Assembly (NCBI GenBank): GCA_020354945.1
Contig: CP070655.1
Coordinates: 927,022 to 952,347 of the forward strand
DNA length: 25,326 bases
Origin: Candidatus Omnitrophota bacterium
Lineage (GTDB): Bacteria > Omnitrophota > Gorgyraeia > JABMRG01 > JAFGKX01
Reading direction: 5' to 3'
Shown here: piece after piece, positions 2,025 through 20,897 of the stretch
Position numbering within the stretch: position 1 is the first letter of the stretch
How the letters are laid out: every line of letters begins with the position of its first letter
Notes under the pieces: generated by a model
The model's input: the letters and a program-made list of their open reading frames with translations, nothing else
What the model was told of the DNA's origin: nothing
Databases searched by the model: none
Translations under genes and position numbers: made by a program

Positions 2025-2060
2025 GGGGACGTTTCCAAACCCGTTCGGGAACCTGTCCCC
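2025..2060. repeat. Palindromic REP-like element, family I (GGGGACGTTTCC...GGGAACCTGTCCCC)
   Basis: ggggacgtttccaaacccgttcgggaacctgtcccc forms an imperfect hairpin; related copies at 8268-8320 and 13571-13629. Confidence 0.85.
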
Positions 2061-2073
2061 GCCAGCGATGTCA

Positions 2074-2817
2074 CTAAATCTGAATTTCTGTATCGTCCAA
2101 AGACATAAATGTATCAGGGAATATCTTTTTTGCCTGAACTTCTGCTATTCTTCTATCTTCTAAAGTTGGAAAAAGGTGCGGGTTAAAATGTATCAGCGCC
2201 AGTCTTTTGGCATTTGCCTCTACTGCTATATTAGCAGCTGCCTCCGGATTAAGATGGGGCCAGTCCTCTCTATATACTCCGGATTTTAAAGAACACTCGC
2301 ACATAAGGAAATCAGCATCTTTTGCCAATCTAACTGTATTATTGCAGGGCCCTGTATCGGGGCAGTAAGTGATAATTTTCTTATCAATCTCTATTCGGTA
2401 TCCAAAACACCCTGCAGAGTGACAAAGCGGCCTGCATTCTACCGGAAAAGGTAGATTGTGCCTGCCTTCTTTCAGTTCAAATATTTCTACTTTATAATCT
2501 AATTTATCTATATTTATTGAAAAAGGAGGAGCAAAAATTTTATTTAACATTTCATTTGTTCCCTCAAGCCCGTATATTTTTATTCCTTGTGGAAACTTAA
2601 ATTTATTCAAAGTGTGAAGACCTGTAATGTGGTCAAGGTGAAAATGGCTTAAGAAGATATAAATCGGCCTGTTATCCTTTATAAATCTGTCAATTTTATA
2701 AAGGCCGTCTCCGGCATCGAAAATAATATAGAATTTTTCTGTCTCTATAAAAATAGAGGTTGTATTTCCGGTATTTGTGTTAAACCAGCCGTTTGTCCCA
2801 AGAAATATTAACTTCAC
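2074..2817 (-). CDS. MBL-fold metallo-hydrolase, RNase Z/BN-like
   Basis: FLGT start motif, FDAGDG, SHFHLDH, PDTG, LIH. The probable start is GTG at 2817, preceded by AGGAGGAG (ORF track start 2838). Confidence 0.85.
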   Translation of the reverse strand: MKLIFLGTNGWFNTNTGNTTSIFIETEKFYIIFDAGDGLYKIDRFIKDNRPIYIFLSHFHLDHITGLHTLNKFKFPQGIKIYGLEGTNEMLNKIFAPPFSINIDKLDYKVEIFELKEGRHNLPFPVECRPLCHSAGCFGYRIEIDKKIITYCPDTGPCNNTVRLAKDADFLMCECSLKSGVYREDWPHLNPEAAANIAVEANAKRLALIHFNPHLFPTLEDRRIAEVQAKKIFPDTFMSLDDTEIQI

Positions 2818-2903
2818 TTCTCCTCCTTTTTTCTTCAAATAATGGCACTCCTTGTAACTGTTTTATTTGCAAAGGGTTATGGATAAATTGTACCATCGTG
2901 CAG

Positions 2904-3335
2904 CTATTGTTTCTTATATAAGCCGATTAATTCAGCTTTACCCAGGATGTGCTCTTGTATTATTTCTTCTAAATCTTCTTTTCTAATCCCCTCATCCAAA
3001 TTAAGTTTTTCTTTAAGCGCGTAGATTTTAAAGAAATAACGGTGAGTGCCTGACGGCGGGCAGGGGCCGCCATAGTCTTTCCTGCCGAAATCATTAGTCC
3101 CCTGCTTTCCGGGAATGCAGTTTTGTTCAATTTTCGAAACTACAGGAATATCAAAAACAACCCAGTGAACCCAGGTCCCGGTAGTGGCATCCGGGTCATC
3201 AACTATTAATGCAAGGCTTTTAGCATCTTTGGGAACATCATCAATAACCAGTGGAGGATTTACATCATCCCCCTGGCAGGTAAATTTTTTAGGAATAAGT
3301 TTATTATTTTGAAATTCCGGGCTTGTTAGTTTCAT
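2904..3335 (-). CDS. YbhB/YbcL (PEBP/RKIP-like) protein
   Basis: LIVDDPDA, WVHWV, YGGPCPPSGTHRYFF; GGAGG SD upstream. Confidence 0.95.
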   Translation of the reverse strand: MKLTSPEFQNNKLIPKKFTCQGDDVNPPLVIDDVPKDAKSLALIVDDPDATTGTWVHWVVFDIPVVSKIEQNCIPGKQGTNDFGRKDYGGPCPPSGTHRYFFKIYALKEKLNLDEGIRKEDLEEIIQEHILGKAELIGLYKKQ

Positions 3336-3370
3336 CTTTTGCCTCCTTTTTTATTTAAGCATATCAGGCG

Positions 3371-3715
3371 TTAGCAGGTGAGATGGAATGCGCCTACTGC
3401 TCTTTTGCCTTTTTTAATCTGCTCATTAAAAAGCCGGCTGGCCAGTTTTGTATCTTCATCGATGATCTCTATATGCTTCTGCTTAAGTAGATTTTTGGTG
3501 GATGAAGGTATCTGCATGCAGCTTGAGGCACCTTTGCCGACTATTAAGACTTCCGGTTTATAATTTATAACTTCATCCAAATCTTCTATAGCTAAAGAAT
3601 GCCCTTGTTTGCGCCACCAGTTAGGCTTAACTTTATCAGGAAAGACGATTAAGTCTTCTTCATATATCTTGCCATCAACCGTCATAGAGCCAAAGGCATA
3701 AGAATCGATTTGCAT
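3371..3715 (-). CDS. Mth938-like domain protein (DUF498)
   Basis: IDSYAFG, WWRKQGH, PEVLIVGKG and C-terminal AFHLTC. Confidence 0.9.
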   Translation of the reverse strand: MQIDSYAFGSMTVDGKIYEEDLIVFPDKVKPNWWRKQGHSLAIEDLDEVINYKPEVLIVGKGASSCMQIPSSTKNLLKQKHIEIIDEDTKLASRLFNEQIKKGKRAVGAFHLTC

Positions 3716-3717
3716 AC

Positions 3718-4167
3718 TTAATCCGCCGCCTTTTTAACGAGTTTCTCTGTATTAAAATCTTTTATAGTGCGGAATGTTATAAAAATATAATAAGGATGCA
3801 CCGGGTTTCCTATACAATCTAAAATTAAATGGATAGAATACCCTGCAGTGATTGCAAAAAAGTATATATTTTTTGTATATATTGATACTATCCAGAGTAA
3901 AATAGCAAGTTCGCCTATATGAAAGACAAGATGTATTTTTCGAAATCTCTCTTCCCCTTCCAGTTTACAGGTTTGTTCGCATATCAGAAAAAACCTCTTA
4001 AAACTGAAATCCTTCCAGCCATAATGGATTATATATTCTATAATATGGTCGATATCGATAAAAATGCCGGAAATAAAGCATAGAATGCCGGCATACAGAG
4101 ACTTTGTAAAAAACCATATCAATGCTCCCATAGAAAGAGAGGTTATAGCGTGTGCACTTGATTTCAT
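3718..4167 (-). CDS. Membrane protein, putative metal-dependent hydrolase-like
   Basis: H near the N-terminus, IDIDH, FH and HLILD motifs with TM segments. The real start is probably ATG 4167; the ORF-track extension to 4248 is translated repeat DNA. Confidence 0.7.
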   Translation of the reverse strand: MKSSAHAITSLSMGALIWFFTKSLYAGILCFISGIFIDIDHIIEYIIHYGWKDFSFKRFFLICEQTCKLEGEERFRKIHLVFHIGELAILLWIVSIYTKNIYFFAITAGYSIHLILDCIGNPVHPYYIFITFRTIKDFNTEKLVKKAAD

Positions 4168-4177
4168 AGCATCACTT

Positions 4178-4246
4178 GGGGGCACCCTGCAGCACGAAAA
4201 GTTTTGCGGTATATGTTGCTCACTTTTCGTGCTGCAGGGCGTCCTC
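4178..4246. repeat. 69-bp palindromic element, family II, copy A; overlaps the DUF523 3' end
   Basis: Arms gggggcaccctgcagcacgaaaagt / acttttcgtgctgcagggcgtcctc (22 of 25 complementary). Its reverse complement matches 15425-15493 at 50/69 with no gaps (hand count). Confidence 0.9.
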
Positions 4247-4645
4247 ACCCATAACTTTAATACCGTTTTTCTTCAACAACGCTGTCGCAATACCATCGCC
4301 TTTAATAGTCTTACGCGAGAAACTTCCATCATATATTTTGCCGCACCCGCAGGCAGCGCTCCTTTGTTTAAAAATCGCCTCTTTTATATCAAGCAATCTT
4401 GCTAATTTTAAAACCTGGCTTGCTCCAATTTTAAAGTTTTTGGTAACGTCTTTTCCTGATTTTGTAATAACCTTTGCGCCTTTTCCTTCTGAAGGTTTTC
4501 TTGGGGTTGGCAAACCGCCTAATTGTTCTGGGCAGACAGGGATTAATGTCTCTTTTTTAGATAAGGCAATAACTTCTTTATCGGGCTTGCTTTTACCGTC
4601 GTATCTACATCTTATTCCCAGCAAACATGCGCTGCATAGTTTCAT
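4220..4645 (-). CDS. DUF523 / 2-thiouracil desulfurase-family protein
   Basis: SACLLG, CRYDG, PVCPEQLGGLPTPR, RSAACG, GDG motifs. Confidence 0.9.
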   Translation of the reverse strand: MKLCSACLLGIRCRYDGKSKPDKEVIALSKKETLIPVCPEQLGGLPTPRKPSEGKGAKVITKSGKDVTKNFKIGASQVLKLARLLDIKEAIFKQRSAACGCGKIYDGSFSRKTIKGDGIATALLKKNGIKVMGEDALQHEK

Positions 4646-4684
4646 GCTATATATTATTATATAATTTCATTTACTGGAATGTAT

Positions 4685-4795
4685 TTATCGTATATTGTTT
4701 TTATGAGCCTTGAGTTTATTCCGATGCATTCGCTTTCTTTCTCTTAGCAACCTTGGAATATTCTTTTGCCTTCTTGTTATTGTTGGTTTAGCCAT
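4685..4795 (-). CDS. Putative 36-aa highly basic small protein
   Basis: MAKPTITRRQKNIPRLLRERKRMHRNKLKAHKNNIR; its start overlaps the end of the purF-like gene and it fills the intergenic gap. Confidence 0.5.
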   Translation of the reverse strand: MAKPTITRRQKNIPRLLRERKRMHRNKLKAHKNNIR

Positions 4796-6248
4796 TTTTT
4801 AGTTGTAATTGCTTGTTACGCAATACGTTACAAAGAGTGTCGCCATTTATTCTTGGGCTTTCGCCTGTCCAGCAATAGAGACACAGGCCTTCCCTTGGCA
4901 GGCCAATGGCTCCTACCATATCATCTACTGTTTGGTATCTAAGGGTGGTGGCTTCTAAATCCTTTCTTATCCATTCTACCATTTTCTTATACTTCTGGGA
5001 ATTGTGGTCTATATATTCTGATACATCTTCTATATCCGGTCCTTCCAGATTACGGATAGCCCTGCGGGCAGCAAGTTCGTGAATGCTGCGTGTGGACAGA
5101 TTAAACCTGCACGGAAACATCAAAGGTGGGCAGGCGACTCTTATGTGAATCTCTTTTGCGCCGCAGCCCCATAGTTTTTTCACAGTGAAGTTTCTGAGCT
5201 GGGTTCCCCTTACGATAGAATCCTCACATACCACAATTTTATTTGCCTCAATTATCTCTTTTTTAGGGATGAGTTTCATCTTGGCTATTAAATTTCTGAC
5301 CTCCTGAGACGGTGGAGTATAACTTCTGCCATATCCTGTTGTATATTTCACCAAAGGCCTTCTATAAGGTTTGCCGCTCTCCATAGCGTATCCTAAAGCA
5401 TGGGCAATTCCTGAATCAGGGACTCCGGATACTACATCTATTTCTATATCCCGGTCTCGTCTGGCCAGGCATTGTCCGCATCTCTCCCTCACTGTTTCCA
5501 CATTTATTCCTTCGTAACCCGAGGCAGGGAAACCGGCATATATCCATAGGAATGCGCAGATCTGATTTATATTTCCTCCTGGTCTTCTCTGCGCAATGCC
5601 CTCCTCATTTATGAGAATTGTTTCCCCTGGCTCGAGATATTTCACTGTCTCGAGCCCGATATTTGGAAAGGTGCTGGTTTCGGATGTTACTGCCCAGGTA
5701 TTATCCCTTTTGCCGACTGCAAGGGGCGTATATCCAAACCTATCTCTGGCTGCATAGACACCGTCTTTGTTCAGCAATAAGAGCGAGCAGGAACCATCTA
5801 TTGCTTCGAACATCCGCTCGATGCCATCTATTAAATCATTACCCTGGGTAACCAATTTGGCTATTAGCTCTGTTGTATTAACCGCACCCCTGCTCACTTC
5901 ACTAAATGATGCACCCTTCTTTAAAAGCCTCTCTGCTAATTCTTCAGTGTTTTCAATAAGCCCGTTGGTTACTATGCAAAACGGGCCGAACTTAGAATTT
6001 AGATAAATAGGTTGTTCGTCAGAGGAGCTAATAGCGCCGATGCCTTTGTTGCCTTTCATTCGCTTGTAATCTTCATAGAATTTTGACTTAAATTGGCTCT
6101 GGCTTATATTGTGTATCTGGCGTACGAAATCCTCTCCTAATACTGCCATGCCCCCGTATTCTGTTCCAAGATGCGAATGATAATCTGTTCCGTAATACAA
6201 AGTCTCTGCGCAGTCTCCTTTAGAAACTACTCCAAAGATTCCACTCAT
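4788..6248 (-). CDS. purF: Amidophosphoribosyltransferase-like protein lacking the catalytic Cys1
   Basis: Ntn fold (NG, ARDRFGYTPL), PRTase motifs VPDSG and VVCEDSIVRGT, Fe-S cysteines (QICAF, CPP..PC, LCLYC). The N-terminus is MSGIFG rather than MCGIFG. Confidence 0.85.
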   Translation of the reverse strand: MSGIFGVVSKGDCAETLYYGTDYHSHLGTEYGGMAVLGEDFVRQIHNISQSQFKSKFYEDYKRMKGNKGIGAISSSDEQPIYLNSKFGPFCIVTNGLIENTEELAERLLKKGASFSEVSRGAVNTTELIAKLVTQGNDLIDGIERMFEAIDGSCSLLLLNKDGVYAARDRFGYTPLAVGKRDNTWAVTSETSTFPNIGLETVKYLEPGETILINEEGIAQRRPGGNINQICAFLWIYAGFPASGYEGINVETVRERCGQCLARRDRDIEIDVVSGVPDSGIAHALGYAMESGKPYRRPLVKYTTGYGRSYTPPSQEVRNLIAKMKLIPKKEIIEANKIVVCEDSIVRGTQLRNFTVKKLWGCGAKEIHIRVACPPLMFPCRFNLSTRSIHELAARRAIRNLEGPDIEDVSEYIDHNSQKYKKMVEWIRKDLEATTLRYQTVDDMVGAIGLPREGLCLYCWTGESPRINGDTLCNVLRNKQLQLKNG

Positions 6249-6300
6249 TTTATAACTCCATTTTAACGCTTTAACGCGTTTAGAAGACCTGGAAGAGCTG

Positions 6301-7266
6301 CTAAACAGCCTCTATGGTTGAAGGTGGTTTTTTGGTTACGTTATAAGTAACACTCACAACACCCGGAACTTCTGTCGTTATTCTTTCTGCTAATTTCTCT
6401 AAGGCCTCATAAGAAAGCCTGGTTGGTGAACCTGTTACCGCATCTTTGCTCTCCCAGCACCTTAGCTCTATTTGTAAACCATAATCTCTTTTTCCATCTC
6501 GCACACCGGTAACTTTATCTTGATGCAAAATTGCCATATACTGGAAAGCCCCTGTATCGGATAATTCTTCTTCAACAATCTTTGTAGCAGCCCTTACAAC
6601 CTCTACTCTTTTTTGTGTGACTTCTCCTATTATTCGCGCTGCTAAGGCAGGCCCCGGGAATGGCGGCCTGTTATATATTTGCTCCGGTAAGCCCAGAGTT
6701 TTCGCAACTTCTCTAACTGCCGGTTTTCTAAGTTGTATTATAGGTTCTATAACCTTATATCCGTATTGTTGTTGCGTATCTATACCTAATTGCTCAAGAA
6801 TGTTATGCTGCCTTTTAACCCCTGCGACGGTCTCTTCTACATCTGTATAATTGCTGCCCTGAAGAAGGTATTTCACCCCGCTTTCTTTTACCAGCCGGCC
6901 AAAAACATCTTTATAAAAAACTTGAGTAATAGCCTCTCTTTTTTGTTCAGGGCCTGTCAGGCCTTTTAATGCATTAAAGAACTCATTTTTGGCATCAACC
7001 ATTTCTACGGACACGCCCAGTTTTTTAAATAAAGAAACTACCATTTGCGGCTCGCCTCGCCTCATTATGCCGTTCTCTATAAAATATGTCTTAAGTCTGT
7101 CGCCCAAAGCCCTATGCCCTAACATAGTAACAGTCGAGGAATCGACACCGCCGGAGAGGGCGTTAATAACTAAACCATCGCCGGCAACAGAGGAGATTTC
7201 CTTTACCTTCTCTTCTATAAATTTCTGCGGTTGTAAATCTTCTAATTTTATTTCTTCGATTTTCAT
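6301..7266 (-). CDS. guaA: GMP synthase ATP-pyrophosphatase subunit (subunit B type, no GATase domain)
   Basis: ALSGGVDSS PP-loop, PEQKR, LLQG, QHN, RPPFPGPALAAR, YNVTKKPPSTIE; only 321 aa. Confidence 0.9.
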   Translation of the reverse strand: MKIEEIKLEDLQPQKFIEEKVKEISSVAGDGLVINALSGGVDSSTVTMLGHRALGDRLKTYFIENGIMRRGEPQMVVSLFKKLGVSVEMVDAKNEFFNALKGLTGPEQKREAITQVFYKDVFGRLVKESGVKYLLQGSNYTDVEETVAGVKRQHNILEQLGIDTQQQYGYKVIEPIIQLRKPAVREVAKTLGLPEQIYNRPPFPGPALAARIIGEVTQKRVEVVRAATKIVEEELSDTGAFQYMAILHQDKVTGVRDGKRDYGLQIELRCWESKDAVTGSPTRLSYEALEKLAERITTEVPGVVSVTYNVTKKPPSTIEAV

Positions 7267-7287
7267 TTCATTTTATTTCCTTTTCTT

Positions 7288-8118
7288 TCATCCATTAATA
7301 GCATTAACAGCATCTTTTGCAGCGCGCCGCACACCTATATATTCATCGTTTAACAACGGCTCAAGGTAGGGCAGGGCAGATTTATCCTTAATCTTCGCAA
7401 GCGCTTCAATTGTCCTTATCTTTATAGGTTTGTTTCCCGTATCTAATCTCTTTATCAGTGCTTCTACGACGATCTTATCTTTAAAATTAGATAGTATGTC
7501 TATAGTTTTTAAGACTATAGAAGTATTTGTATCGTTGAGCCTTTTGATTAAAGCCGGTATTGCTGATTTATCTTTAAACAATGCCAGCGCATCTAACGCC
7601 TTCATACGGATGCTTGCATATCTATCCGGAAGGGCCTCTATAAAATTAGAAACAGCGCTTTTATCTTTTAGTTTCATCAAAGCAGACATAGCTTCTAATC
7701 TCGCCTCTCCATAAGAGTCTTTTATCGCCTTCTTAAAAATATCGGCTAAATCTTTATTCTCCATTGCTCCAAGGGCTTTTATTGAAGCTAAGCGCAATCT
7801 ACGTTTAGGGCTGTTTGTCAATTCTTTAAGGACCGGTATCGCTTCTGCGGTTTTGTTAATTTCAAATATTTGAATTATGTCAACTTTTACAGAAGACTTT
7901 GCGTGTTCATCTTCTAAAACATTTATCAATTCGGCTGTGGCTGCCTCTTTTGCTTTAATAAGCATATTTTTGGCTGTTGCCCTTTCTCTTCTATCAGACA
8001 ACTGGTTAATCCATCCTTTGATATTCTCATTTTCGCCGCCATATAAATAATTTACTGGCAACAATAAAAATACCAAAGATATAACCGTTACCAAAACAAA
8101 AAACCTGTTTTGTCGCAT
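7288..8118 (-). CDS. Secreted HEAT/PBS-lyase repeat protein
   Basis: Signal-peptide-like N-terminus; about 31-aa repeats (R..A..AL...KDKSA.P.LI..L.D); AAGGAGGT SD. Confidence 0.9.
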   Translation of the reverse strand: MRQNRFFVLVTVISLVFLLLPVNYLYGGENENIKGWINQLSDRRERATAKNMLIKAKEAATAELINVLEDEHAKSSVKVDIIQIFEINKTAEAIPVLKELTNSPKRRLRLASIKALGAMENKDLADIFKKAIKDSYGEARLEAMSALMKLKDKSAVSNFIEALPDRYASIRMKALDALALFKDKSAIPALIKRLNDTNTSIVLKTIDILSNFKDKIVVEALIKRLDTGNKPIKIRTIEALAKIKDKSALPYLEPLLNDEYIGVRRAAKDAVNAING

Positions 8119-8158
8119 ACAGCACCTCCTTTATCTGTTTGTGTGGACGAACCACTAT

Positions 8159-8185
8159 ATTATAACAAAAAGACCAATTTAGCAA
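8159..8185 (-). promoter_or_regulatory. Putative sigma70 extended -10 promoter for the HEAT gene
   Basis: TGtTATAAT on the minus strand, with TTGCTA 15 nt upstream of TATAAT. Confidence 0.5.
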
Positions 8186-8193
8186 TTAAAATT

Positions 8194-8386
8194 AGGGACG
8201 TTTTTTGATGGCATAGTGAATGCCATAGCCATCAAGGAACCTTCCGGAATCAAGCTCCACGATGGCGGTTTCTAAAATTGTTTGGGAACCTGCCCTATTT
8301 TTGTTCGGAAACCTGCCCCCTTCAGTGGAAGACATGGGGACACTTCTGCAAACAAAACCATAAACGGTTCTATATGTTTCGAAGAG
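8194..8386. repeat. Composite cluster of palindromic elements
   Basis: Hairpin gggacgttttttgatggc...gccatcaaggaaccttcc (8195-8245); family I copy 8268-8320 (45/53 identical to 13577-13629); decayed ggggacacttc...tgtttcgaag (8336 onward). Confidence 0.75.
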
Positions 8387-8390
8387 ATAA

Positions 8391-8813
8391 TTAAGAGGAT
8401 GAGAATTTATTTATTAGCATATTTATTTTATCTGCTAACGGCTTAAGCACGTCTTTTTCGCGTAATTGAATCGGGCCACTTTTTTCATCGGAGATTATAT
8501 CGTCTAACTCTCCTTCCAGCCGTGAGAGAGGGCCAAGCATTCTATGGGATAATCCAAGTGCTATTGTCCATATAGCAAGCAAAGTAATGGGTAGAGCTAT
8601 TAAAATTATTAGATTTACCTTCCTGGCAACAGGAATCAAGTTGTACGCTACGGCCTCAGGGATTCCAATTTGCCAGGCAAGCAGGTTGAATATAAGGTAA
8701 TACAAACATAATGCTACAATTCCGGCCGGTATTACGGCTGAGGTAAAGACCAGAATCAACAGTTTCTTCTGGGCAGGAGAACCTATAAACTTCTTTTTTC
8801 TTTTATTCCTCAT
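8391..8813 (-). CDS. Two-TM membrane protein with a HAMP-like C-terminus
   Basis: Two hydrophobic helices, then SHRMLGPLSRL...LREKD..LADKIN; overlaps the DUF3047 gene end. Confidence 0.75.
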   Translation of the reverse strand: MRNKRKKKFIGSPAQKKLLILVFTSAVIPAGIVALCLYYLIFNLLAWQIGIPEAVAYNLIPVARKVNLIILIALPITLLAIWTIALGLSHRMLGPLSRLEGELDDIISDEKSGPIQLREKDVLKPLADKINMLINKFSSS

Positions 8814-9495: not shown

Positions 9496-9504
9496 GCTAT
9501 ATTA

Positions 9505-9533
9505 ATTATACACACACAGAATAAAAAAAGCAA
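9505..9533 (-). promoter_or_regulatory. sigma70 promoter, probably a leaderless or near-leaderless transcript
   Basis: TTGCTT-17 nt-TATAAT, then 9 nt to ATG 9495 with no SD. Confidence 0.65.
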
Positions 9534-9550
9534 AATAAAAACACAGATTG

Positions 9551-10651: not shown

Positions 10652-10711
10652 CCACACACCAATTTTTATAAAAAACTTCCATTTACCCCACATCAACAAT
10701 TGGCGTGGGGT
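10651..10711. repeat. ACCCCAC..CAA/TTG..GTGGGGT hairpin plus a half copy
   Basis: accccacatcaacaattggcgtggggt (10685-10711) and the related cccacacaccaattttt at 10651-10667. Confidence 0.6.
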
Positions 10712-10731
10712 TCATTCTATTTAAACAAGAT

Positions 10732-10771
10732 ACCGCCGCCTATGCAAAAAGTGCCGCATACAGGCAGCGGT
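10732..10771 (-). terminator. GC-rich hairpin, possible terminator or processing stem
   Basis: accgccgcctatgc...gcatacaggcagcggt; only a weak U-tract follows on the minus strand. Confidence 0.4.
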
Positions 10772-10827: not shown

Positions 10828-10920
10828 TTATGGACTTATAGACATAATGCGGACTATCATTACTATAATACAAATGGCTGTAAAAATTGCCAGCAATATA
10901 ACCGCTATTTTGTTATTCAT
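10828..10920 (-). CDS. Putative 30-aa single-TM small protein
   Basis: MNNKIAVILLAIFTAICIIVMIVRIMSISP; starts 7 nt after the M48 peptidase stop. Confidence 0.5.
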   Translation of the reverse strand: MNNKIAVILLAIFTAICIIVMIVRIMSISP

Positions 10921-11704: not shown

Positions 11705-13570
11705 CTATTTTATGCCAATCCGTTTTCTTTCTGCTAAAAGGATAATATCTCTTAGTTCTTCTGCATTGCGGGCATCGAGCCACCTTTTATCAAAATTTTT
11801 ACCCTGGGCAATCTGGGCAATTGCAGCCAATGCGCGCAGGTGAAAATTACGTTCATCACGAGAACCTACCAGGACAAAAATGGTATGAACCGGTTGGGGT
11901 GTATCAGGAAAAATAATTCCCTTTTTGCATCGTACTATTAGAATGTCAAATTTAGCAACCCCTTTGATTATAATATGAGGTATGGCCAGCCCAGGGGCAA
12001 TCACAGTGCTGGTCTGTTTTTCCCTTTCTATAAAAAGATCGAACAGGGTCTTCTTGTCTATCTCTAATCGCCTGGATAGTATATTTGCTACTATCTTAAA
12101 CATACTTTCAGCCGTAGGCATTGCAGCGGTAGGCGGCTCATAGTCTAAAATTTCGCATTTTTTTATAAGGTGGTCAAATCTATCTTCAACAATCTCATCC
12201 CGTTCAATGATAATCCCTCTTAACTCATCCGGTAAAGTAGCGTCAACCAGCTCTCTGGCAGTAATTCTTTCAATAACATGAACCATGGCTGCCTGGCGGT
12301 TTACTCTTTTCCTGGCATAAAGCAGATACCAGGCCAGGCCGCAACTGATGAAAATCGCAGTTATAGAAAGAGGAACCCTTCCCATTTCAAAAATAAGAAA
12401 CCCATATCCTAAAATTGCCAATATTTGGACCCAGGGATAGAGCGGTGAACGAAATTTTGGCCGATAACCTTGAATTTTACTTTCTCGCATAATGATAAGG
12501 GATAGATTTACAAACATAAACAGCAGAATCATAAGAGTAGATGCAGTCTTGACCAAATTCTCTAAACTTAAGAATAAGATAACCACAATCATAAAAGCAG
12601 TAGTAAAGATTATAGAAAAATGGGGAGTTTTAGACCTGGCATTTATTCTCTCAAAAATTTTAGGCAAGAGGGAATCCCGGCTCATTGCCAAAGAATTCCT
12701 GGAGGCGGTCAGGATACCGGCGTTGGCTGTTGAAATGAAGGCCAAAAGGGCAGCGATGGCCAGTATTATACCCCCTGGATTCCCCATGAAAGTGCTGGCG
12801 CCAAGTGAAAGCGGAACAAGAGAATTTGAGAACTGTGCAGAATCGAGCAATCCAACTGTTACGAAAACAACCGCAGCATAAAGGATAATCACAACACAAA
12901 AGGCAAGAAACATTCCCAGCGGTATATTGCGTCCAGGGTTTTTTACCTCTTCTGCAACACAGCTTATTTTTGTTAAACCTCCAAATGAAACAAAGACAAG
13001 ACCTGCAGTAGCAAAAACCGAAACCCACCCAAAAGGCACAAATGGAGTAAATCTGTTGGGTTGAATAAATAGAAAACCTCGAAGGATATATAGCAGGAGT
13101 ATACCAATAAGTGAAAGGACCAATGCTATCTGGAACCTCCCTGTTTGTTTAACGCCGATGATATTAACAAACATAAAGAAAAGGCAGCACCCTACGGCAA
13201 TAAGTTTTATTTGTGCCTCTGTAATGCCGGGGTTAATTAACGTAGCAAATATACCAATTCCGACAAGGGCAAAGGCACTTTTAAAACTCAAAGAAAACCA
13301 GCTGGCGAGTCCTCCTATGGAACCTATGGGAGCCCCCATACTTCTCTCAATAAAAAAATAGACGCCCCCTGCTTTAGGCATAGCGGTAGTCAGTTCCGCC
13401 TGGGCAAGCATGGCCGGTAAGATTAGAATGCCGGCCAGAATATATGAGATGATCATAGCAGGCCCGGTCTTTGCATATGCCAGAGCAGGCAAAATAAATA
13501 TCCCAGAACTAATCATTGCTCCGGAGGCTATGCAAAATATATCCAGAAGTCCTAATTCTTTTTTTAACAT
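11705..13570 (-). CDS. APC-family amino acid permease fused to a C-terminal PTS EIIA(Ntr/Fru)-like domain
   Basis: GAMISSGIF, AELTTAMPKAGG, AEEVKNP.RNIP, about 12 TMs; C-terminal RE...ST....LAIPH and FHLRALAAIA. Confidence 0.92.
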   Translation of the reverse strand: MLKKELGLLDIFCIASGAMISSGIFILPALAYAKTGPAMIISYILAGILILPAMLAQAELTTAMPKAGGVYFFIERSMGAPIGSIGGLASWFSLSFKSAFALVGIGIFATLINPGITEAQIKLIAVGCCLFFMFVNIIGVKQTGRFQIALVLSLIGILLLYILRGFLFIQPNRFTPFVPFGWVSVFATAGLVFVSFGGLTKISCVAEEVKNPGRNIPLGMFLAFCVVIILYAAVVFVTVGLLDSAQFSNSLVPLSLGASTFMGNPGGIILAIAALLAFISTANAGILTASRNSLAMSRDSLLPKIFERINARSKTPHFSIIFTTAFMIVVILFLSLENLVKTASTLMILLFMFVNLSLIIMRESKIQGYRPKFRSPLYPWVQILAILGYGFLIFEMGRVPLSITAIFISCGLAWYLLYARKRVNRQAAMVHVIERITARELVDATLPDELRGIIIERDEIVEDRFDHLIKKCEILDYEPPTAAMPTAESMFKIVANILSRRLEIDKKTLFDLFIEREKQTSTVIAPGLAIPHIIIKGVAKFDILIVRCKKGIIFPDTPQPVHTIFVLVGSRDERNFHLRALAAIAQIAQGKNFDKRWLDARNAEELRDIILLAERKRIGIK

Positions 13571-13629
13571 AGGGACGTTTCCAAAGTTGTTCGGGAACCT
13601 GCCCTATTTTCAATCGGGAACCTGTCCCC
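13571..13629. repeat. Palindromic element family I with a duplicated right arm
   Basis: agggacgtttccaaagttgttcgggaacctgccct + attttcaatcgggaacctgtcccc; abuts ATG 13570. Confidence 0.85.
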
Positions 13630-13666
13630 TACTTATAAACTTTTGGAACTTTTTTAACTGTTTCTA

Positions 13667-14749: not shown

Positions 14750-14766
14750 ATCCGAGGGGTCCTTCC

Positions 14767-15528
14767 CTATTCCTGTGCCTTCCCGGTCATAGGCACAAAC
14801 CTGACCGGTATTACGCTTTTAGATTTTACCTTACCTCTCTTCTTTTCAAGTAATTTTAACTCTTGCCAGACATCACCTACCGGAATAACCATTCTTCCGC
14901 CTTCTGCTAATTGTTCAATGAGAGGCTCAGGAACTTCATCCGGCGCGCAGGTTACAATTATACCGTCGAATGGCGCATATTCCTCCCAGCCGATAAATCC
15001 ATCGCCGCATTTAACGGTAATATTCTTATAACCTAAATTTTTTAGCAGTTTATCCGCCCTTGTAGTTAGAGGCTCCAATATTTCTATAGTGTAAACCTCT
15101 TTAGACAATTCAGCCAATACAGCTGCCTGATATCCGGAGCCGGTGCCTATTTCCAGTACTCTTTCATCTCCGTCCAATTTTAATAGTTCGGTCATTAGCG
15201 CAACTATATATGGCTGTGAAATTGTCTGCCCTTCTCCGATGGGCAAAGGCCGGTCAGTATAAGCAAAGGCCCTTAGATATATAGGCACAAATTTATGCCT
15301 TTCTACCTTAAGCATTGCGTCCAACACTCTTTCATCACTGACGCCCCTGGCAACTATTTGAGTCTCAACCATGCGCTTTCTTGCAAGTGCATATCTTTCC
15401 TCTGTGGGTTCTTCAGCGTAGACCAGGGACACCCTGCAGCAGAAAAAGGGAGCATACTCCATAGAAAACCTTTTTGTGCAGCAGAGTGTCCCCAGTATAA
15501 TTAAAACAAAAATGACTTTTATCTTCAT
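14767..15528 (-). CDS. pcm: Protein-L-isoaspartate O-methyltransferase with a signal-like N-terminus interrupted by a repeat
   Basis: V.RHKFVP, PLPIGEGQTISQPYIVA, VLEIGTGSGYQAA, APFDGIIVT, VRFVPM. Confidence 0.95.
   Translation of the reverse strand: MKIKVIFVLIILGTLCCTKRFSMEYAPFFCCRVSLVYAEEPTEERYALARKRMVETQIVARGVSDERVLDAMLKVERHKFVPIYLRAFAYTDRPLPIGEGQTISQPYIVALMTELLKLDGDERVLEIGTGSGYQAAVLAELSKEVYTIEILEPLTTRADKLLKNLGYKNITVKCGDGFIGWEEYAPFDGIIVTCAPDEVPEPLIEQLAEGGRMVIPVGDVWQELKLLEKKRGKVKSKSVIPVRFVPMTGKAQE
15425..15493. repeat. 69-bp palindromic element, family II, copy B; in frame inside pcm
   Basis: Arms gggacaccctgcagcagaaaaagg / cctttttgtgcagcagagtgtccc (21 of 24 complementary); encodes GTLCCTKRFSMEYAPFFCCRVSL; CCAG direct repeat 69 nt apart at the ends. 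Confidence 0.9.
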
Positions 15529-17834
15529 GCAATCGCTCCCTCCCGACGGGTAAACATCAAAATAATAAAACTGGACATCTTTAACACAACCATTAACATG
15601 CAGCTGTTAAATAACCCTAAGATTGGCAGCAGGGCTACGCCTCCTAACATCCCTCCTATCCATCCGCCTAAAAGGTCGCCGGCGTAAAGAAGACCTGCTG
15701 CCTGACCTATGTTAGGGGATGTCTTTAGATATATTTTATTCCCTAACGGAAATTCCGCTCCTACCAGAAATCCTGATATAAAGGAAAGCGCCAAAAATGT
15801 TATTTGACGGAAGGGGACATTTAATCTGAGCAACGTAAACAGTAATATAAATGAAAAAAAGATAAGGGCTATCTCCAATCTTATAAAGCTCTTGAGGTCG
15901 TCTTTTATCTTTTCCAGGCTTAAGGTCATTGCCAGGCCCCCTAAAGTAAGGCCGACCATAAAAGCAGTAATTAGCAATCCCATCCAGTAATATACAAAGC
16001 CATATAATATCTGGAAAGCAAATATTAAAATTAGGTCAAAAAGCATTCCGCAAAATCCTGTGGCTATTATAGCATATGGTACAGCATAGCGTCCGACTCC
16101 CTTATTCTTGAAGCTAATAATTAAATATAAAATGACAAAAATAATAACAGGTATAATGAAAAACTTCAGGCTTATCTTTTCGAATAATTTAAATATTCCT
16201 TGAGTGTGCGGCGAAAAGAGCGCGTTCCAGAAAGATAAGCTGTAAAATACCCCTATCGGAGAGAAGTCTTTATTTGCTTTTCTTTTAGCCTCTTTGATAG
16301 ATTCTAAGTACCATTTTAGCCTACCCGGAGCCAATTTATATTCAATGTAATTCTGAGTTATAAGGGATGCCCCAAAACCCCGCTGTTTAAACCTCCGGGT
16401 AAGTAAAGCAGGATTGATAGCGCTTAAGTTTCCCGAAGCAGAACTTAGAAGGATATTGGTATCACCGGGAATAGTTCTTATATAAGGAAAATTGATTTTT
16501 AGGGCATCATGGATACAGGCATTGAGTTTTCTTAATTCGTAGCTTAAGTAACTCAAAGAACCCGGCAGATTAATAGCTAATATACCATTTTCATTTAGCC
16601 GATTTTTAGCCATTGAGAAGAATTCTTCCGTAAAAAGCCTGTTTGTCTGCAAATCCTGCGGATTGGGTATCCCGATCATTATGACATCATATCTATTTTT
16701 GGTATCTTTAAGAAAGTATCTGCCATCAACATAATGGATTTTAACCCGGGGGTCGGATAGTTCTTTCCGGGTAATGGGAGCAGAAAATCTCTTAGCCGCT
16801 TTTATGATTAAAGGGTCAAGTTCGCAATAGTCTATTTCTTCCACCGGATGTTTTAATACCTCGTTTATCAGGCCTCCGGCGCCGCCGCTTATTATCAATA
16901 TAGTTTTTGGAGAAGGATGAGAAAGTAAAGGAAGGTGGGCGAATTCCTCAACAAAGAAAATATCCGGAGTAGGGCTGCTGAACATCGGGATGCCATTGCT
17001 AAAAAAGGTATATTGCTTGCCCCTTTCTGTAACAGCTACATTACCATAGACGGAATTGCGATAGTAAATAACTTTATGCTGAGGCCATTGCTTTTTAAGG
17101 GAATCCCGGTGAATATTGTCTGCTTTTAAGATAAGGAAGATATTTAAAAATAAAAATATACAAGTTATATATCCTAATAATTTAGTTAATAATAATCTAT
17201 CAGGTTTATAGGAAGCTCCCAGCAGAATTAGGCATATCAAAATATTTAACAGGCTTATGCCGAAGGTTATTTGAAAGGAATTAAAATATCTGATAAGTAG
17301 ATAAGTAAAGACAATCCCGCCTATCAATGTGCCAAAGGCTTCATAAACATAAACCTTCCCTATTACTCCGCCGCCAAGGGAAGGCTTGCCTTTGATGCCT
17401 TCTACGGATACGTCGCTGCCTTGAAATGACGAATATATCCTGCAACCGAAAGTAAAAAGCGCCCCATGAGGAATGGATATAGGCAAAAGCAATATAAAGG
17501 AAGAGCAAAATATGGGGACGATACCCAGGCCTTCTCCGGGCGTCAACCCGAAAATAATATTTAATACCCGGGTTAAATAAACTACTAAAGGCAGAGAAAG
17601 ACAAAAGATAAGTTGCAGGATTATAAATGTCTCGATTTTTCGTTTTATATGCTCAATTCTTTTGCCAACGAAAAAAGCACCGGCTGCTTCAAGGATTAGC
17701 CAGTTGGCTAAAATAATACCTATCGAGAGTTCATTGCCATAAAACTTTATTAGAAGCTCTCGCAACAGCAATACCTGAGCTACAATGCCGCTGAATCCGA
17801 CTATTATTAAGGCAGCTATAAATCTTTTTTTCAT
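15525..17834 (-). CDS. Fused membrane (MFS-like) / spermidine-synthase-like protein
   Basis: N- and C-terminal TM bundles (QVLLLREL..FYGNELS; LYAGDLLG) flanking a SAM-fold domain (EEFAHLPLLSHP.P, GGAGG, ELDP, DGRYF). Confidence 0.85.
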   Translation of the reverse strand: MKKRFIAALIIVGFSGIVAQVLLLRELLIKFYGNELSIGIILANWLILEAAGAFFVGKRIEHIKRKIETFIILQLIFCLSLPLVVYLTRVLNIIFGLTPGEGLGIVPIFCSSFILLLPISIPHGALFTFGCRIYSSFQGSDVSVEGIKGKPSLGGGVIGKVYVYEAFGTLIGGIVFTYLLIRYFNSFQITFGISLLNILICLILLGASYKPDRLLLTKLLGYITCIFLFLNIFLILKADNIHRDSLKKQWPQHKVIYYRNSVYGNVAVTERGKQYTFFSNGIPMFSSPTPDIFFVEEFAHLPLLSHPSPKTILIISGGAGGLINEVLKHPVEEIDYCELDPLIIKAAKRFSAPITRKELSDPRVKIHYVDGRYFLKDTKNRYDVIMIGIPNPQDLQTNRLFTEEFFSMAKNRLNENGILAINLPGSLSYLSYELRKLNACIHDALKINFPYIRTIPGDTNILLSSASGNLSAINPALLTRRFKQRGFGASLITQNYIEYKLAPGRLKWYLESIKEAKRKANKDFSPIGVFYSLSFWNALFSPHTQGIFKLFEKISLKFFIIPVIIFVILYLIISFKNKGVGRYAVPYAIIATGFCGMLFDLILIFAFQILYGFVYYWMGLLITAFMVGLTLGGLAMTLSLEKIKDDLKSFIRLEIALIFFSFILLFTLLRLNVPFRQITFLALSFISGFLVGAEFPLGNKIYLKTSPNIGQAAGLLYAGDLLGGWIGGMLGGVALLPILGLFNSCMLMVVLKMSSFIILMFTRREGAIA

Positions 17835-17837
17835 ATG

Positions 17838-17887
17838 AAAAAAAGGTCAGGCCCTAACATGCGTATTCTCTATGCCAGAGCCTGACC
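17838..17887 (-). terminator. 16-bp hairpin plus U7: intrinsic terminator and/or GGTCAGG-type palindromic element
   Basis: Minus strand GGTCAGGCTCTGGCAT-11 nt-ATGTTAGGGCCTGACC TTTTTTT, fully paired with three G-U pairs. Confidence 0.75.
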
Positions 17888-17918
17888 CAAACTGACTTGC
17901 ATCACTCGCCCGTTGCTG

Positions 17919-18284
17919 CTATTTATTACCCAGGCCGGCCTGATGACCTTCGCTGTAACCTTTCTCAAAACCCTGCTGATAGCCGGATTGATATCCTCGC
18001 TGGAATGCCTCTGTCGAACCCATGCCTTCTACAGTCTTGACTTCCTCCACCCTTTTGCCGGTCATAGAATCAAAGAGCATGCCACCTACAATATTTACAC
18101 CTGCTCCGACAAGGGCGCCTGTGCCGGCTTTGCCGCCCGATACTTCAGAAGAGACGGCACCGGTAGCAGCCCCTAAAAGTCCTTGTTTTAAGAGGTTCTG
18201 CGCTGTCTTTTCATCACATTGGCCAATATTGCAGATGGTTACAATCAGCAACGCCGCCACGACTATTGTAATTATCACTTTCAT
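17919..18284 (-). CDS. Small secreted glycine-zipper-like protein
   Basis: Signal-like N-terminus, GLLGAATGA..GTGALVGAG, C-terminal GxxxG repeats; AAAGGAGG SD. Confidence 0.75.
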   Translation of the reverse strand: MKVIITIVVAALLIVTICNIGQCDEKTAQNLLKQGLLGAATGAVSSEVSGGKAGTGALVGAGVNIVGGMLFDSMTGKRVEEVKTVEGMGSTEAFQRGYQSGYQQGFEKGYSEGHQAGLGNK

Positions 18285-18314
18285 CTCTTGCCTCCTTTCA
18301 TCACTCTATATATA

Positions 18315-18343
18315 AGTATGACACGTTTTTCTTACGATGTCAA
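18315..18343 (-). promoter_or_regulatory. sigma70 promoter for the 17919-18284 gene
   Basis: TTGACA-17 nt-CATACT with a TG extension. Confidence 0.7.
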
Positions 18344-18353
18344 TATTCCAAAT

Positions 18354-18713
18354 TCATTTTCCTAAAATCATCTTTAATGCTACACCGATTAAAAATGCAC
18401 CGAATATCTTCTTAAGCAAAGCATCCGGGATTGGCGTAACAAAAGATGCGCCGATTAATCCACCGATAAAAAATCCTACGCAGATTAAGGCAGCGACTTT
18501 TATATCTGCGTTTCCTGCCTGGTAATACTTAATTGCTGCTAATAGGCCAATAGGCGGCACCATTAAGGCTAGAGTTGTGCCCTGTGCCTGATGCTGGGTG
18601 AATCCTAAAAGATAGACTAAAGCCGGAATGATAATTGTCCCGCCACCAATGCCTAAGAATCCACTGAATATCCCTGCAATTAAGCCTAATGTTAAGCAAA
18701 AGTATATACTCAT
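18354..18713 (-). CDS. TauE/SafE (TSUP) family transporter, half-size
   Basis: SGFLGIGGGTIIIPAL, QHQAQGTTL; start ATG 18713 after GGAGGAGG (the ORF-track extension is repeat DNA). Confidence 0.9.
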   Translation of the reverse strand: MSIYFCLTLGLIAGIFSGFLGIGGGTIIIPALVYLLGFTQHQAQGTTLALMVPPIGLLAAIKYYQAGNADIKVAALICVGFFIGGLIGASFVTPIPDALLKKIFGAFLIGVALKMILGK

Positions 18714-18728
18714 TGCCTCCTCCATATA

Positions 18729-18776
18729 GGTGTCAGGCACCGGGATGTGCATTGTCTATGCCTAGTGCCTGACACC
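18729..18776. repeat. Palindromic element GGTGTCAGGCAC...GTGCCTGACACC containing the helicase stop codon
   Basis: Perfect 12-bp arms at 18729-18740 and 18765-18776. Confidence 0.8.
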
Positions 18777-20736
18777 CAATACTCTCTTCCTTCTGCTCTG
18801 TTTCCCATTTTTCATAAGATTCATGCGGTAATTCTTCAATAAAAACAGAAGGCCTGGCTATTACATTGCCGTAATTGTAATCGTACCTTGTCATAGGGTG
18901 GATTAAATACAGATAATTTTTGGCCCTGGTAACTGCTACGTAAAAAAGTCGCCTCTCCTCTTCTAACTGCTGCAAATCCTCCATGGATTTTGAATGGGGA
19001 AACTGATTGTCAATCAAGCCTATTATCATAACAGCATCCCATTCCAACCCTTTTGCCTGATGGATAGTTGTAAGTATCAGATAGTCGCTGGTATCTTTCA
19101 CAGGCTCGATTACGGTCTCGCCTTTAAAGGTTTCGCCTAAACTTGTATCTGCCAAGAATTTATTTACGCTTCTGTAGGTATGAGCAAAGTTGAGAAGCTC
19201 TTTTAAGTCATCGAGCCTGTCTTTGTAATTGTCAAAGTGGGTAATGCAGTATTTTTCATAACCTGTTTTGATTACGGTCTCGAGCATCAAATCAATTTTA
19301 CCGTATGTATTATCCTTAGTAACGGCGGACATCGTATTTCGGAAATGTTCAAATGCCACTCTTGTCTTTTTCTTAAGAAAATTCCAATGCTTATCCTTAA
19401 ATATATCTTTTAAAGATTTGCAATTCCAGGTGAAATTTTTAAAGATTTTGGTTGAAAATCCTGCGCCTATCCCTTGCTCTAAAGATAAAGCCCTCATCCA
19501 GGCAATTTCATCATTTGGATTCTGAATTATCCTTAAATAAGATAATGCATCCTTTATATGGGCCTGTTCAAAAAACTTTATACCGCCTCTTATAATATAA
19601 GGGATGCCTCGTTTAAGCAGTTCCATTTCCAATTCTGCGGATTGATAATGGGCCCTGAAAAGCACCGCCATTTTCTTTAGGTCATAGCCTTCATCATGAA
19701 GTTCTAAAACCCTTTGTATTATGAAAGCACTCTGCCGGCGTAAATCTCTTACCTCTATTAATATAGGTTTTTCTCCCCGGCCTTTCACGCTTTTTAAATC
19801 TTTTTCATACTGTTTCCTGTTAAAATTTATAGATTCATTTGCCAGATCTAGAATGTCCTGGCTCGAACGATAATTTGTCTGCAGTTTAAAAATTTTTGTT
19901 TCAGGAAATTCTTTAGGGAAATTGAAGATATTATCTATTGTCGCTCCGCGGAATGCATAGATACTCTGGGCGTCATCGCCGACAACCAGTATATTTTTAT
20001 GCTCCTCGGACAATATCTTTATTATCTCAAATTGCAGTTTATTGGTATCCTGATACTCATCCACAAGGATATTTTCAAATTGCCCGGTAAATCTGCCTCT
20101 GACTGCTTGTGATTGATTAAGCAATCTTAAAGTCTCAGTCAAAAGGTCGTCATAATCTAAATTATTAGAAGAGGCCTTCCTCTTCGTGTAAATGGAATAG
20201 ATTACCTTTACGTCGTTTATAAGTTCTAAAAATTCAGGGTAATACGTGTTTATAACGTTTGAGAGATTTTCTTTGGTATTGCGTGAGTAACTTATAATAG
20301 ACTGGATAACCCGCGGCGCTGGAAAAAATTTATCTTTTGTATTTATTTTTAATTCTCTTAGGCACGCTTTTATTAAAGTCCTCGCATCTTCTTGATCCAT
20401 TATATTGTAATCCGGCTTTATTCCGATATGCTTACCGCGCATCCTCAATATACGATTCCCAATATGGTGAAATGTGCCGCACCATAAATCTTTGACGTCT
20501 TTTCTAAGAAGCATCTCCACTCTGTCTTTCATCTGGCGGGCTGCTTTATTTGTGAACGTGGCAAGGAGGATATTATCGGGTTTTACCCCTCTTTCTAAGA
20601 GGTAGGCCACCCTGTAGATGAGAGTTCTGGTTTTGCCGCTTCCTGCGCCGGCCAAAACCAGGCAGGGTTCATCTGCTCCCATTACTACTTTGAGCTGTTC
20701 AGGATTAAGGTGCTTGGTATAATCGATTTTTAGCAT
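18733..20736 (-). CDS. UvrD/PcrA/Rep-family SF1 DNA helicase
   Basis: LNPEQ, LAGAGSGKT, TFTNKAA, LVDEYQD, VGDDAQSIYAFRGA, NYRS, TIHQAKGLE, EERRLFYVAVTRA. The probable start is ATG 20736. Confidence 0.95.
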   Translation of the reverse strand: MLKIDYTKHLNPEQLKVVMGADEPCLVLAGAGSGKTRTLIYRVAYLLERGVKPDNILLATFTNKAARQMKDRVEMLLRKDVKDLWCGTFHHIGNRILRMRGKHIGIKPDYNIMDQEDARTLIKACLRELKINTKDKFFPAPRVIQSIISYSRNTKENLSNVINTYYPEFLELINDVKVIYSIYTKRKASSNNLDYDDLLTETLRLLNQSQAVRGRFTGQFENILVDEYQDTNKLQFEIIKILSEEHKNILVVGDDAQSIYAFRGATIDNIFNFPKEFPETKIFKLQTNYRSSQDILDLANESINFNRKQYEKDLKSVKGRGEKPILIEVRDLRRQSAFIIQRVLELHDEGYDLKKMAVLFRAHYQSAELEMELLKRGIPYIIRGGIKFFEQAHIKDALSYLRIIQNPNDEIAWMRALSLEQGIGAGFSTKIFKNFTWNCKSLKDIFKDKHWNFLKKKTRVAFEHFRNTMSAVTKDNTYGKIDLMLETVIKTGYEKYCITHFDNYKDRLDDLKELLNFAHTYRSVNKFLADTSLGETFKGETVIEPVKDTSDYLILTTIHQAKGLEWDAVMIIGLIDNQFPHSKSMEDLQQLEEERRLFYVAVTRAKNYLYLIHPMTRYDYNYGNVIARPSVFIEELPHESYEKWETEQKEESIGCQALGIDNAHPGA

Positions 20737-20742
20737 ATTAAC

Positions 20743-20897
20743 GGGGACGCTTTCCAAGGTGCCACTTTCCAGCACGGAAACTTTCAAGTTTTCCGACTTT
20801 TATATTAAACTTTTGATTTTCTATATAAACTACTATAGAAATTTTACCAAAACTTGCCAATTTTGTGTTGGAGACTGGCACCTTGGAAAACGTCCCT
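20743..20897. mobile_element. 155-bp MITE-like element with about 50-bp imperfect inverted arms
   Basis: Left ggggacgctttccaaggtgccactttccagcacggaaactttcaagtttt versus reverse complement of right agggacgttttccaaggtgccagtctccaacacaaaattggcaagtttt (first 22 nt 20/22); AT-rich core with an inner hairpin tttctata/tatagaaa. Confidence 0.75.

Follow-up and report, generated by a model that had tools for sequence, protein, structure and literature searches.

Genes and repeat elements of the window

We analysed a 25,326-nt stretch of the genome of a Candidatus Omnitrophota bacterium (contig CP070655.1; hereafter the window), in which short repeats and palindromes, most of them falling into groups that we call A, B, C and D, lie among ordinary genes. 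The G+C content of the window is 36-45% in 1-kb steps, and all its credible genes are carried by the - strand. Compared with Pfam, its 26 open reading frames (ORFs) have the content of an ordinary housekeeping and metabolic region: a GDSL esterase, an aldo/keto reductase, an MBL-fold hydrolase, PEBP, DUF498, a 2-thiouracil desulfurase, an amidotransferase, a GMP-synthase-like protein, a HEAT-repeat protein, DUF3047, a radical SAM protein, an M48 peptidase, an amino-acid permease fused to EIIA, PCMT, a spermidine-synthase-like membrane protein, UvrD, a GT4 glycosyltransferase, a CBS protein, GH65 and HAD. Five unassigned ORFs had no match in NCBIfam, and the named homologues of PCMT and UvrD belong mostly to metagenome-assembled genomes (MAGs) of Candidatus Omnitrophota/Omnitrophica. 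With corrected gene starts, intergenic DNA amounts to 1,494 nt, or 5.9% of the window. The elements are located within this intergenic DNA or at its borders, with spacers filled exactly by elements.

An initial annotation of this DNA had placed repeats or palindromes at 2025, 4178, 8194, 8268, 13571, 15425, 17845, 18729 and 20743, and all of these are present. It had also described their interiors as unrelated; direct repeats instead group the copies into families A, B and C. Within the window we count four copies of A at three loci, two copies of B and a possible remnant, two copies of C, and one of D. A supposed remnant at 4803 was not accepted: its position is within the amidotransferase-like gene, at the 3' end, and it has no match among the other elements. 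The elements, with their coordinates and strand, are the following.

2023-2060, + strand: family A, single-unit copy (head and one unit); nhmmer E = 3.1e-06; direct-repeat family D1
4177-4247, no strand: family B, hairpin with 26-nt arms 88% complementary; inverted repeat I2; direct-repeat family D4
8194-8250, + strand: family A, head, nested 31-nt palindrome (about 8205-8235) and degenerate unit; fold z = -3.66
8262-8330, + strand: family A, two-unit copy with degenerate head; direct repeats D1 and D3; nhmmer E = 2.4e-13
8336-8365, + strand: possible left arm of B standing alone (GGGGACAC..CTGCA..), right arm absent; weak, seen by eye, no BLAST match
10685-10711, no strand: E, lone small palindrome (CCCCAC..GTGGGG) with no GGGAC foot; fold z = -2.80
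13569-13630, + strand: family A, two-unit copy; nhmmer E = 1e-16; fold z = -0.29
15425-15493, no strand: family B, hairpin of 69 nt (23 codons), in frame in PCMT; fold z = -5.63
17847-17889, no strand: family C, hairpin; fold z = -5.24
18729-18776, no strand: family C, hairpin with 12-nt perfect arms; inverted repeat I10; fold z = -5.00
20739-20901, no strand: D, 163 nt, with 37-nt terminal inverted repeats (TIRs) 84% complementary; inverted repeat I1

Family A is a sequence module in which a head (T-R-G-R-GACGTYTMC-AA) is followed by one or two 17-nt units with a 23-nt period, head and unit being degenerate inverted copies of each other. The copies at 2023, 8260 and 13569 are 67-86% identical over 36 nt, and those at 8268 and 13577 are 85% identical over 54 nt. 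The first copy, at 2023-2060, lies 6 nt upstream of the start codon of the aldo/keto reductase gene (- strand), while the head of the copy at 13569-13630 abuts the start codon of the permease-EIIA gene. The copy at 8194-8250 forms the first part of a cluster (8119-8390) whose spacer has nested or adjacent copies, and it owes its fold z to the nested palindrome. All four GGGAACCT motifs, at three loci, are on the + strand. This uniform orientation was considered as evidence and dropped: the window offers only three loci, and the orientation relative to the genes is reversed at three of the related loci described below (L037, L057 and L004).

Families B, C and D are strong hairpins when folded as sense-strand RNA (z from -5 to -10), and with two copies or one each they are too few for covariation. 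The B hairpin at 4177-4247 (-42.1 kcal/mol, z = -9.08) stands between the 2-thiouracil desulfurase gene, whose last codons lie in the right arm, and the next ORF. In the ORF list, hyp150 (3718-4248) has a GTG start inside this hairpin; its true start is likely the ATG at 4167. The B copies at 4179 and 15426 are 87% identical over a 23-nt arm and the two copies read open in four and five of six frames. The further element that had been proposed at 8336 does resemble the left arm of B, but only that, having no right arm. Both C copies share GTCAGGC...TCTATGCC...GCCTGAC. The copy at 17847-17889 ends 12 nt before the next start codon and is the only element with a run of T after its stem (on the - strand), as in a terminator; a consensus terminator scan flagged no element because its loop limit is 8 nt. 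The start of the TauE-like gene is most likely at 18713, with a GGAGG motif before it.

The single D element (-66.8 kcal/mol, z = -10.36), whose left end resembles the A head, fills the whole spacer between the GT4 and uvrD genes: the GT4 stop codon lies in its tip, and it ends 2 nt before the uvrD start. The ORF list gives uvrD (18733-20787) a TTG start inside D, the likely true start being the ATG at 20736. A sigma-70-like site (TTGGCA, 17 nt, TATAGT; 10/12) in the loop of D, at 20832-20860 on the - strand, is directed toward uvrD. For the small palindrome E, BLAST found no second copy in the window or in the loci listed from other genomes (see below).

Consensus scans of the window gave sigma-70 promoter-like and terminator-like counts at the level of shuffled DNA. 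No match to Rfam 15 reached the gathering score, all six matches with E <= 1 falling far below it; the sub-threshold matches on D and B were to microRNA hairpin models (38 vs 140 bits and 25 vs 57 bits). By a script criterion, a Shine-Dalgarno-like motif lies at most 20 nt from the start in only 11 of 25 window genes, so that the absence of this motif beside elements means little, and the idea that the element-adjacent genes are special in lacking it was dropped. At 10840-10920 (- strand), in the 228-nt spacer between the M48 peptidase and radical SAM genes, a small hydrophobic ORF of about 26 codons, seen by eye, may have escaped annotation.

Coding insertions and recurrence in related genomes

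In PCMT (protein-L-isoaspartate O-methyltransferase; 14767-15528), the signal-peptide region contains the B copy at 15425-15493 as an insert of 23 codons in frame. This protein, like its relatives, has a signal-peptide-like N-terminus (MKIK and a hydrophobic stretch). The start codon of this gene overlaps the stop of the upstream gene, and the N-terminal MKIK... matches the homologues. The 23 residues coded by B are cysteine-rich. In the alignment, the insert is present in the window and in the homologue P0002 (91% identical); P0003 (88% identical) and 12 more homologues lack it. Furthermore, the C copy at 18729-18776 codes for the last 13 residues and the stop codon of UvrD. This tail is absent in all 12 aligned relatives, seven of which end in a common D-x-SQL..DY.. 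tail. Both comparisons were made at the protein level. The initial annotation had suggested looking for presence and absence among relatives, and PCMT and UvrD thus provide two such differences in protein, but no empty site was seen in DNA.

A pattern scan of genome contigs with the 17-nt unit gave at least 118 loci, with flanks for 80 of them; the window's own genome is not among the matches listed. We ran an A-module profile (nhmmer) over 1.22 Mb made up of the window and the listed loci. Ten matches had E <= 3.1e-06, of which three are in the window and seven in six loci of three MAGs: L037, L057 and L073 (two matches) in bin.126, an Omnitrophota MAG of 46-49% GC; L096 and L110 in a MAG labelled Planctomycetia (41% GC); and L039 in another such MAG. 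In a fourth MAG, locus L004 has a longer-looped copy, which was identified by inspection of the sequence; its profile match had just E = 0.0041. The profile cleanly sets apart the remaining 111 listed loci, which come from unrelated taxa, match over the 17-mer only (E >= 0.002) and are single chance matches. Heads in other MAGs have GAGAC or GGAGAC.

The A copy at 13569 is 93.7% identical to the copy in L096 and 91.8% identical to that in L110, and the copy at 8262 is 88% identical to L110 over 58 nt. From the flanks, the genes beside the L096 and L110 copies were read as glgA and purL; because the flanking genes differ, these copies and the one at 13569 are, judged by their neighbours, not at orthologous sites. 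Altogether, the neighbours of A in the window and those in the four other MAGs are different genes. In L004, the permease has an orthologue (60% identical in protein) with a tRNA gene upstream and no A module at its start. Since the neighbourhood differs, this locus is not a clean empty site. Outside the window, BLAST against the at least 118 listed loci found no match for B, C, D, E or the remnant at 8336.

L073 carries two A modules in inverted orientation, as well as a 175-bp palindrome (7689-7863) with 78-nt arms 83% complementary, whose tips (TAATGGGACCGTTTC..) resemble those of D (TAACGGGGACGCTTTC..). A terminal motif of 12-16 nt, TRGRGAC(C)GTYT, is common to the A head, D and this palindrome. 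The palindrome lies between convergent sulfatase and phosphodiesterase genes, and both stop codons are in its TTTAAT/ATTAAA tips.

Other palindromes and modules were noted in the related loci. Mini-palindromes consisting only of the two feet (TAGGGAC, 1-2 nt, GTCCCTA), flanked by A and T runs, occur in L096 (502-543, two in tandem) and L073 (9940-9960); they could be bidirectional terminators, protein sites or collapsed elements. In L039 an 83-bp palindrome of another family (3921-4003) has 35-nt arms, each itself a hairpin (GGTCGAGG..CCTCGACC) in the manner of REPINs; a Mur-ligase ORF has its 3' tail in this palindrome, just ahead of mnmE. At L037 (5818-6660) in bin.126, the interval from a GAF-ANTAR regulator gene to mnmG contains an A unit in sense orientation, some 20 nt ahead of the mnmG start. 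In three of the seven related loci, the A module is about 30-550 nt from a contig end (L039 5255-5332, L057 8816-8874 and L073 9981-10133).

Shared feet and the origin of the repeats

The initial annotation had linked most of the elements by shared GGGGAC and GTCCCC ends. Paired feet are in excess in the window, the bare hexamer is not. GGGGAC alone is not enriched in the window, where it occurs 9 times vs 5.67 +/- 2.31, and 12 of 100 shuffles reach 9. Pairs of GGGAC and GTCCC separated by 15-170 nt number 4 vs 0.77 +/- 0.93 in dinucleotide shuffles (4 of 300 reach 4), and 6 of the 10 GGGAC sites on the + strand are inside the 5.9% of DNA that is intergenic. Hairpins with these feet and an inward extension of the stem are more frequent than in shuffled DNA, both in the window (2 vs 0.12; none of 100 shuffles reaches 2) and in four related loci of 41-43% GC (4 vs 0.24). 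The 111 unrelated loci show no excess (57 vs 102 in shuffles). C and E are without a GGGAC foot, and one B copy has GGGGGC and GTCCTC in its place.

We consider it reasonably probable that the window has at least four families (A, B, C and D) of small, non-coding and non-autonomous repeats of the type of miniature inverted-repeat transposable elements (MITEs) or repetitive extragenic palindromic (REP) sequences. In this respect the initial annotation, which had proposed an undescribed REP/MITE system, is supported: the repeats are undescribed, multi-copy and palindromic or TIR-like, and they occur at non-orthologous sites in several related genomes. Having documented repetition within the window, recurrence at non-orthologous sites and presence or absence among close relatives, we infer that transposition caused the spread; the evidence for past insertion is good but indirect. 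The repeats would owe their spread, perhaps still continuing, to an enzyme whose gene lies elsewhere in the genome or has since been lost, and in this very compact genome they would persist only at sites of little harm, namely the short spacers of co-directional genes and those gene ends that are read through in frame. A and D would most simply be substrates of one end-recognising enzyme, because they have the 12-16-nt terminal motif in common and the A unit is an inverted copy of the head. B and C are probably separate families, since B shares only the 5-6 nt GGGAC foot with A and D, and C shares nothing. The motif common to A, D and the L073 palindrome agrees with the enzyme acting on shared ends that the initial annotation had put forward, but a single enzyme serving all families goes beyond what we could show, given the short foot of B and the footless C and E. 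For D, a DDE enzyme recognising the TIRs is slightly favoured, while no enzyme class is favoured for B and C, which have no flanking duplication.

Several results weigh against this reading. No transposase, REP-associated tyrosine transposase (RAYT) or Y1_Tnp domain was found in 77 ORFs from about 84 kb, comprising the window (26 ORFs, in agreement with the initial annotation, which had seen no transposase there), the three bin.126 loci (29 ORFs) and L004 with L039 (22 ORFs). Over about 59 kb of related loci, no copy of B, C or D was seen, and a DNA-level empty site was seen for no element. A flanking direct repeat is present at one of six palindromes only, namely D (CATAT, 5 bp, at 20734-20738 and 20902-20906); by eye, there is none at the two B copies, the two C copies or the 175-bp palindrome of L073. 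The repeat at D is suggestive only and may be due to chance, because at the implied empty site GT4 and uvrD would run on in a single frame, no stop codon standing between them. As for a consistent flanking tetranucleotide or a TA duplication, none holds throughout all copies by eye. The element-coded peptides gave no further occurrences either: a word search with PCMT residues 1-42, which include the B-coded peptide, returned one candidate and none scored (proteins of 139-443 aa), and phmmer with the 53-residue D-coded peptide against 1.84 billion representatives returned one weak unrelated match (E = 3.1e-04, 29% identity).

Likewise, A itself departs from what a hairpin element should be. 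It has no stable hairpin, with fold z of -0.63 (2023), -0.29 (13569) and -0.91, no better than shuffles, and in nine copies from four genomes 76% of cells are paired with 0-1 compensatory changes, not above shuffled partners, for either possible head/unit helix. Since neither folding nor covariation is better than in shuffles, A is a conserved sequence module and not a stable hairpin. It looks more like a bound motif: the sequence is conserved across MAGs of about 39% to 49% GC, and in the same orientation the head lies 0 nt (13571), 2 nt (L096), 5 nt (L039), 6 nt (2025) and 13 nt (L110) from a start codon. A may therefore have a host function, as its sequence is conserved and its hairpin is not.

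These properties of A would be expected if the elements were cis-acting signals of the host, with A as a protein-binding site at gene starts and B, C and D as intercistronic RNA hairpins (terminators, stabilisers or processing sites). The tandem units with their 23-nt period also fit such a role, together with the T run of C 17847 on the sense strand, the sigma-70-like site in the loop of D, and the mini-palindromes (TAGGGAC-N1-2-GTCCCTA) beside A and T runs in L073 and L096. However, the neighbouring genes are unrelated (aldo/keto reductase, permease, HEAT, glgA, purL, mnmG, tRNA), A points the other way with respect to the downstream gene in L037, L057 and L004, and the L004 permease orthologue has no module at its start. 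Promoter-like and terminator-like counts at shuffle level, and six weak Rfam matches all far below gathering score, also weigh against host signals, and the coding insertions in PCMT and UvrD, missing in close relatives, are unlike the behaviour of a signal. We regard this explanation as unlikely. That the GGGAC/GTCCC feet are coincidental G+C-rich clamps on unrelated hairpins of an A+T-rich genome, with no link between the families, seems to us very improbable. The unenriched GGGGAC, the short stretch of 5-6 nt that B shares with A and D, the GGGGGC/GTCCTC variant of one B copy, the other feet of C and E, and the GAGAC or GGAGAC heads of other MAGs would agree with coincidence; on the other hand, A, D and the L073 palindrome share a terminal motif of 12-16 nt and not of 5, the GGGAC sites concentrate in intergenic DNA, and the excess of footed hairpins over shuffles is seen in the window and the related loci and not in the unrelated ones.

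In the model that the initial annotation suggests, the elements are of the REP/REPIN kind and one or more HUH Y1 RAYT enzymes propagate them in trans; on single-stranded DNA, these enzymes would recognise the GGGGAC/GTCCCC hairpin foot. REP/REPIN elements are said to go with RAYT transposases, reportedly from the work of Nunvar in 2010 and of Bertels and Rainey in 2011. Five of the six palindromes are without flanking duplication (by eye), as Y1 transposition expects, B and C (43-71 nt) fold over their whole length into looped hairpins that resemble REPIN doublets, and we found an inverted A doublet in L073 and hairpin arms in the L039 palindrome (3921-4003). Furthermore, the elements lie between co-directional or convergent genes and some inside genes, as the available part of PMC3733652 describes for REPs. 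Nevertheless, a Y1_Tnp domain is found in none of the 77 ORFs, and the elements have no unpaired GTAG or CGTC tag and differ in stems and loops from CGTC REPs as presented in that part of PMC3733652. A, the sole family seen across genomes, is without a stable or covarying hairpin, the long TIRs of D and its possible 5-bp duplication fit a DDE enzyme better, and C and E lack the foot. The REP-defining features that we tested, the tag and a conserved hairpin in A, are absent. A RAYT mechanism is neither supported nor excluded by these data, and as an account of the window it seems doubtful to us.

Returning to non-autonomous repeats mobilised in trans, the TRGRGACGTYT foot and the 17-nt unit may together be the recognition module of one trans-acting protein, in a long-lived and vertically kept partnership of an undescribed class (neither GTAG/RAYT nor a known insertion sequence family) across Omnitrophota-related lineages of 39% to 49% GC. 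Such repeats would preferentially settle where, in an operon, a stop codon meets the next start codon, and gene expression might have come to make use of them. This extension is speculative, and we regard it as unlikely.

Significance and comparison with known systems

Omnitrophota are uncultured, have small genomes and are known almost only from metagenome bins, and these small repeat families appear to be new there. In the full-text literature we found no description of such interspersed repeats in Omnitrophota, the motifs occurring only as primers. The available part of an Omnitrophota preprint (10.64898/2026.06.07.730766) mentions IS110, IS5 and IS1634 transposases, and the terms MITE, palindrome and hairpin were not found in it. 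The elements occupy more than one third of the intergenic DNA of this 25-kb stretch and thus matter for annotation: ORF callers extend genes into them at either end, and UvrD and 2-thiouracil desulfurase have element-coded tails. They may also matter for assembly, with modules near contig ends as if breaking short-read assemblies, and they are usable as markers of strain history. Nature has in effect run a small experiment in PCMT, whose signal peptide tolerates a hairpin inserted in frame. Should a single enzyme indeed use the shared foot as its handle, these repeats would be a tractable new example of compact genomes living with selfish DNA.

Bacterial MITEs include the Correia elements of Neisseria and MITEAba12. 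The elements of the window and L073 resemble them in being small (36-175 bp), non-coding, multi-copy and intergenic, with no transposase of their own. Terminal inverted repeats, a feature of TIR-type MITEs, are present in D, B, C and the L073 element (37 nt long in D and 78 nt in L073), and D has a short flanking direct repeat. In contrast to MITEs, the palindromes of B, C and D extend beyond the tips over almost the entire element, A has subterminal tandem units, and a flanking duplication occurs at only one of six elements. We know of no parent insertion sequence with the same ends, and the DNA analysed contains no autonomous element of that kind.

REPs are short imperfect palindromes of 20-40 nt that number tens to hundreds per genome, and they typically flank a RAYT gene. 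With REP/REPIN elements they share the occurrence of several palindromic families per genome, of clusters and of inverted doublets. The sites, too, are alike, being between co-directional or convergent genes with occasional intragenic copies and mostly without flanking duplication. The differences are that the window elements are without the unpaired GTAG or CGTC tag, that A units form no stable hairpin, and that no RAYT gene is among the 77 ORFs; the REP literature consulted does not deal with Omnitrophota. CGTC occurs only within a paired foot (..ACGTCCC), and neither tag stands unpaired at any element end. According to the available part of Di Nocera 2013 (PMC3733652), REPs have an unpaired GTAG or CGTC tag, lie between co-directional or convergent genes and sometimes inside genes, and, in CGTC families, have stems of 8-9 bp and loops of 4-5 nt, which the stems and loops of our elements do not match. 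The same part states that its authors found no dedicated transposase for CGTC REPs, names RPE-4 and RPE-6 as CGTC-type repeats, and attributes GTAG-type REPs to PVC (Planctomycetes-Verrucomicrobia-Chlamydiae) bacteria. The CGTC-REP superfamily, as it is defined in that part, was rejected as a home for our elements, since stem, loop and tag geometry differ.

D is also reminiscent of TIMEs (Tn3-derived inverted-repeat miniature elements). These have GGGG-containing ends, TIRs of about 37 nt and a 5-bp A+T-rich repeat. D, when bounded by its 5-bp repeat, differs in starting with TAAC before GGGG, so that the G run is not terminal, and no Tn3-family transposase was seen in the same ORFs. Rickettsia palindromic elements (RPEs), finally, insert in frame. 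Our case differs from theirs in the host phylum and in that only a single internal insertion in frame was seen, besides two or three gene tails that are read through, but the B copy in PCMT is like an RPE in being an in-frame palindromic repeat of a small compact genome that is open in most frames.

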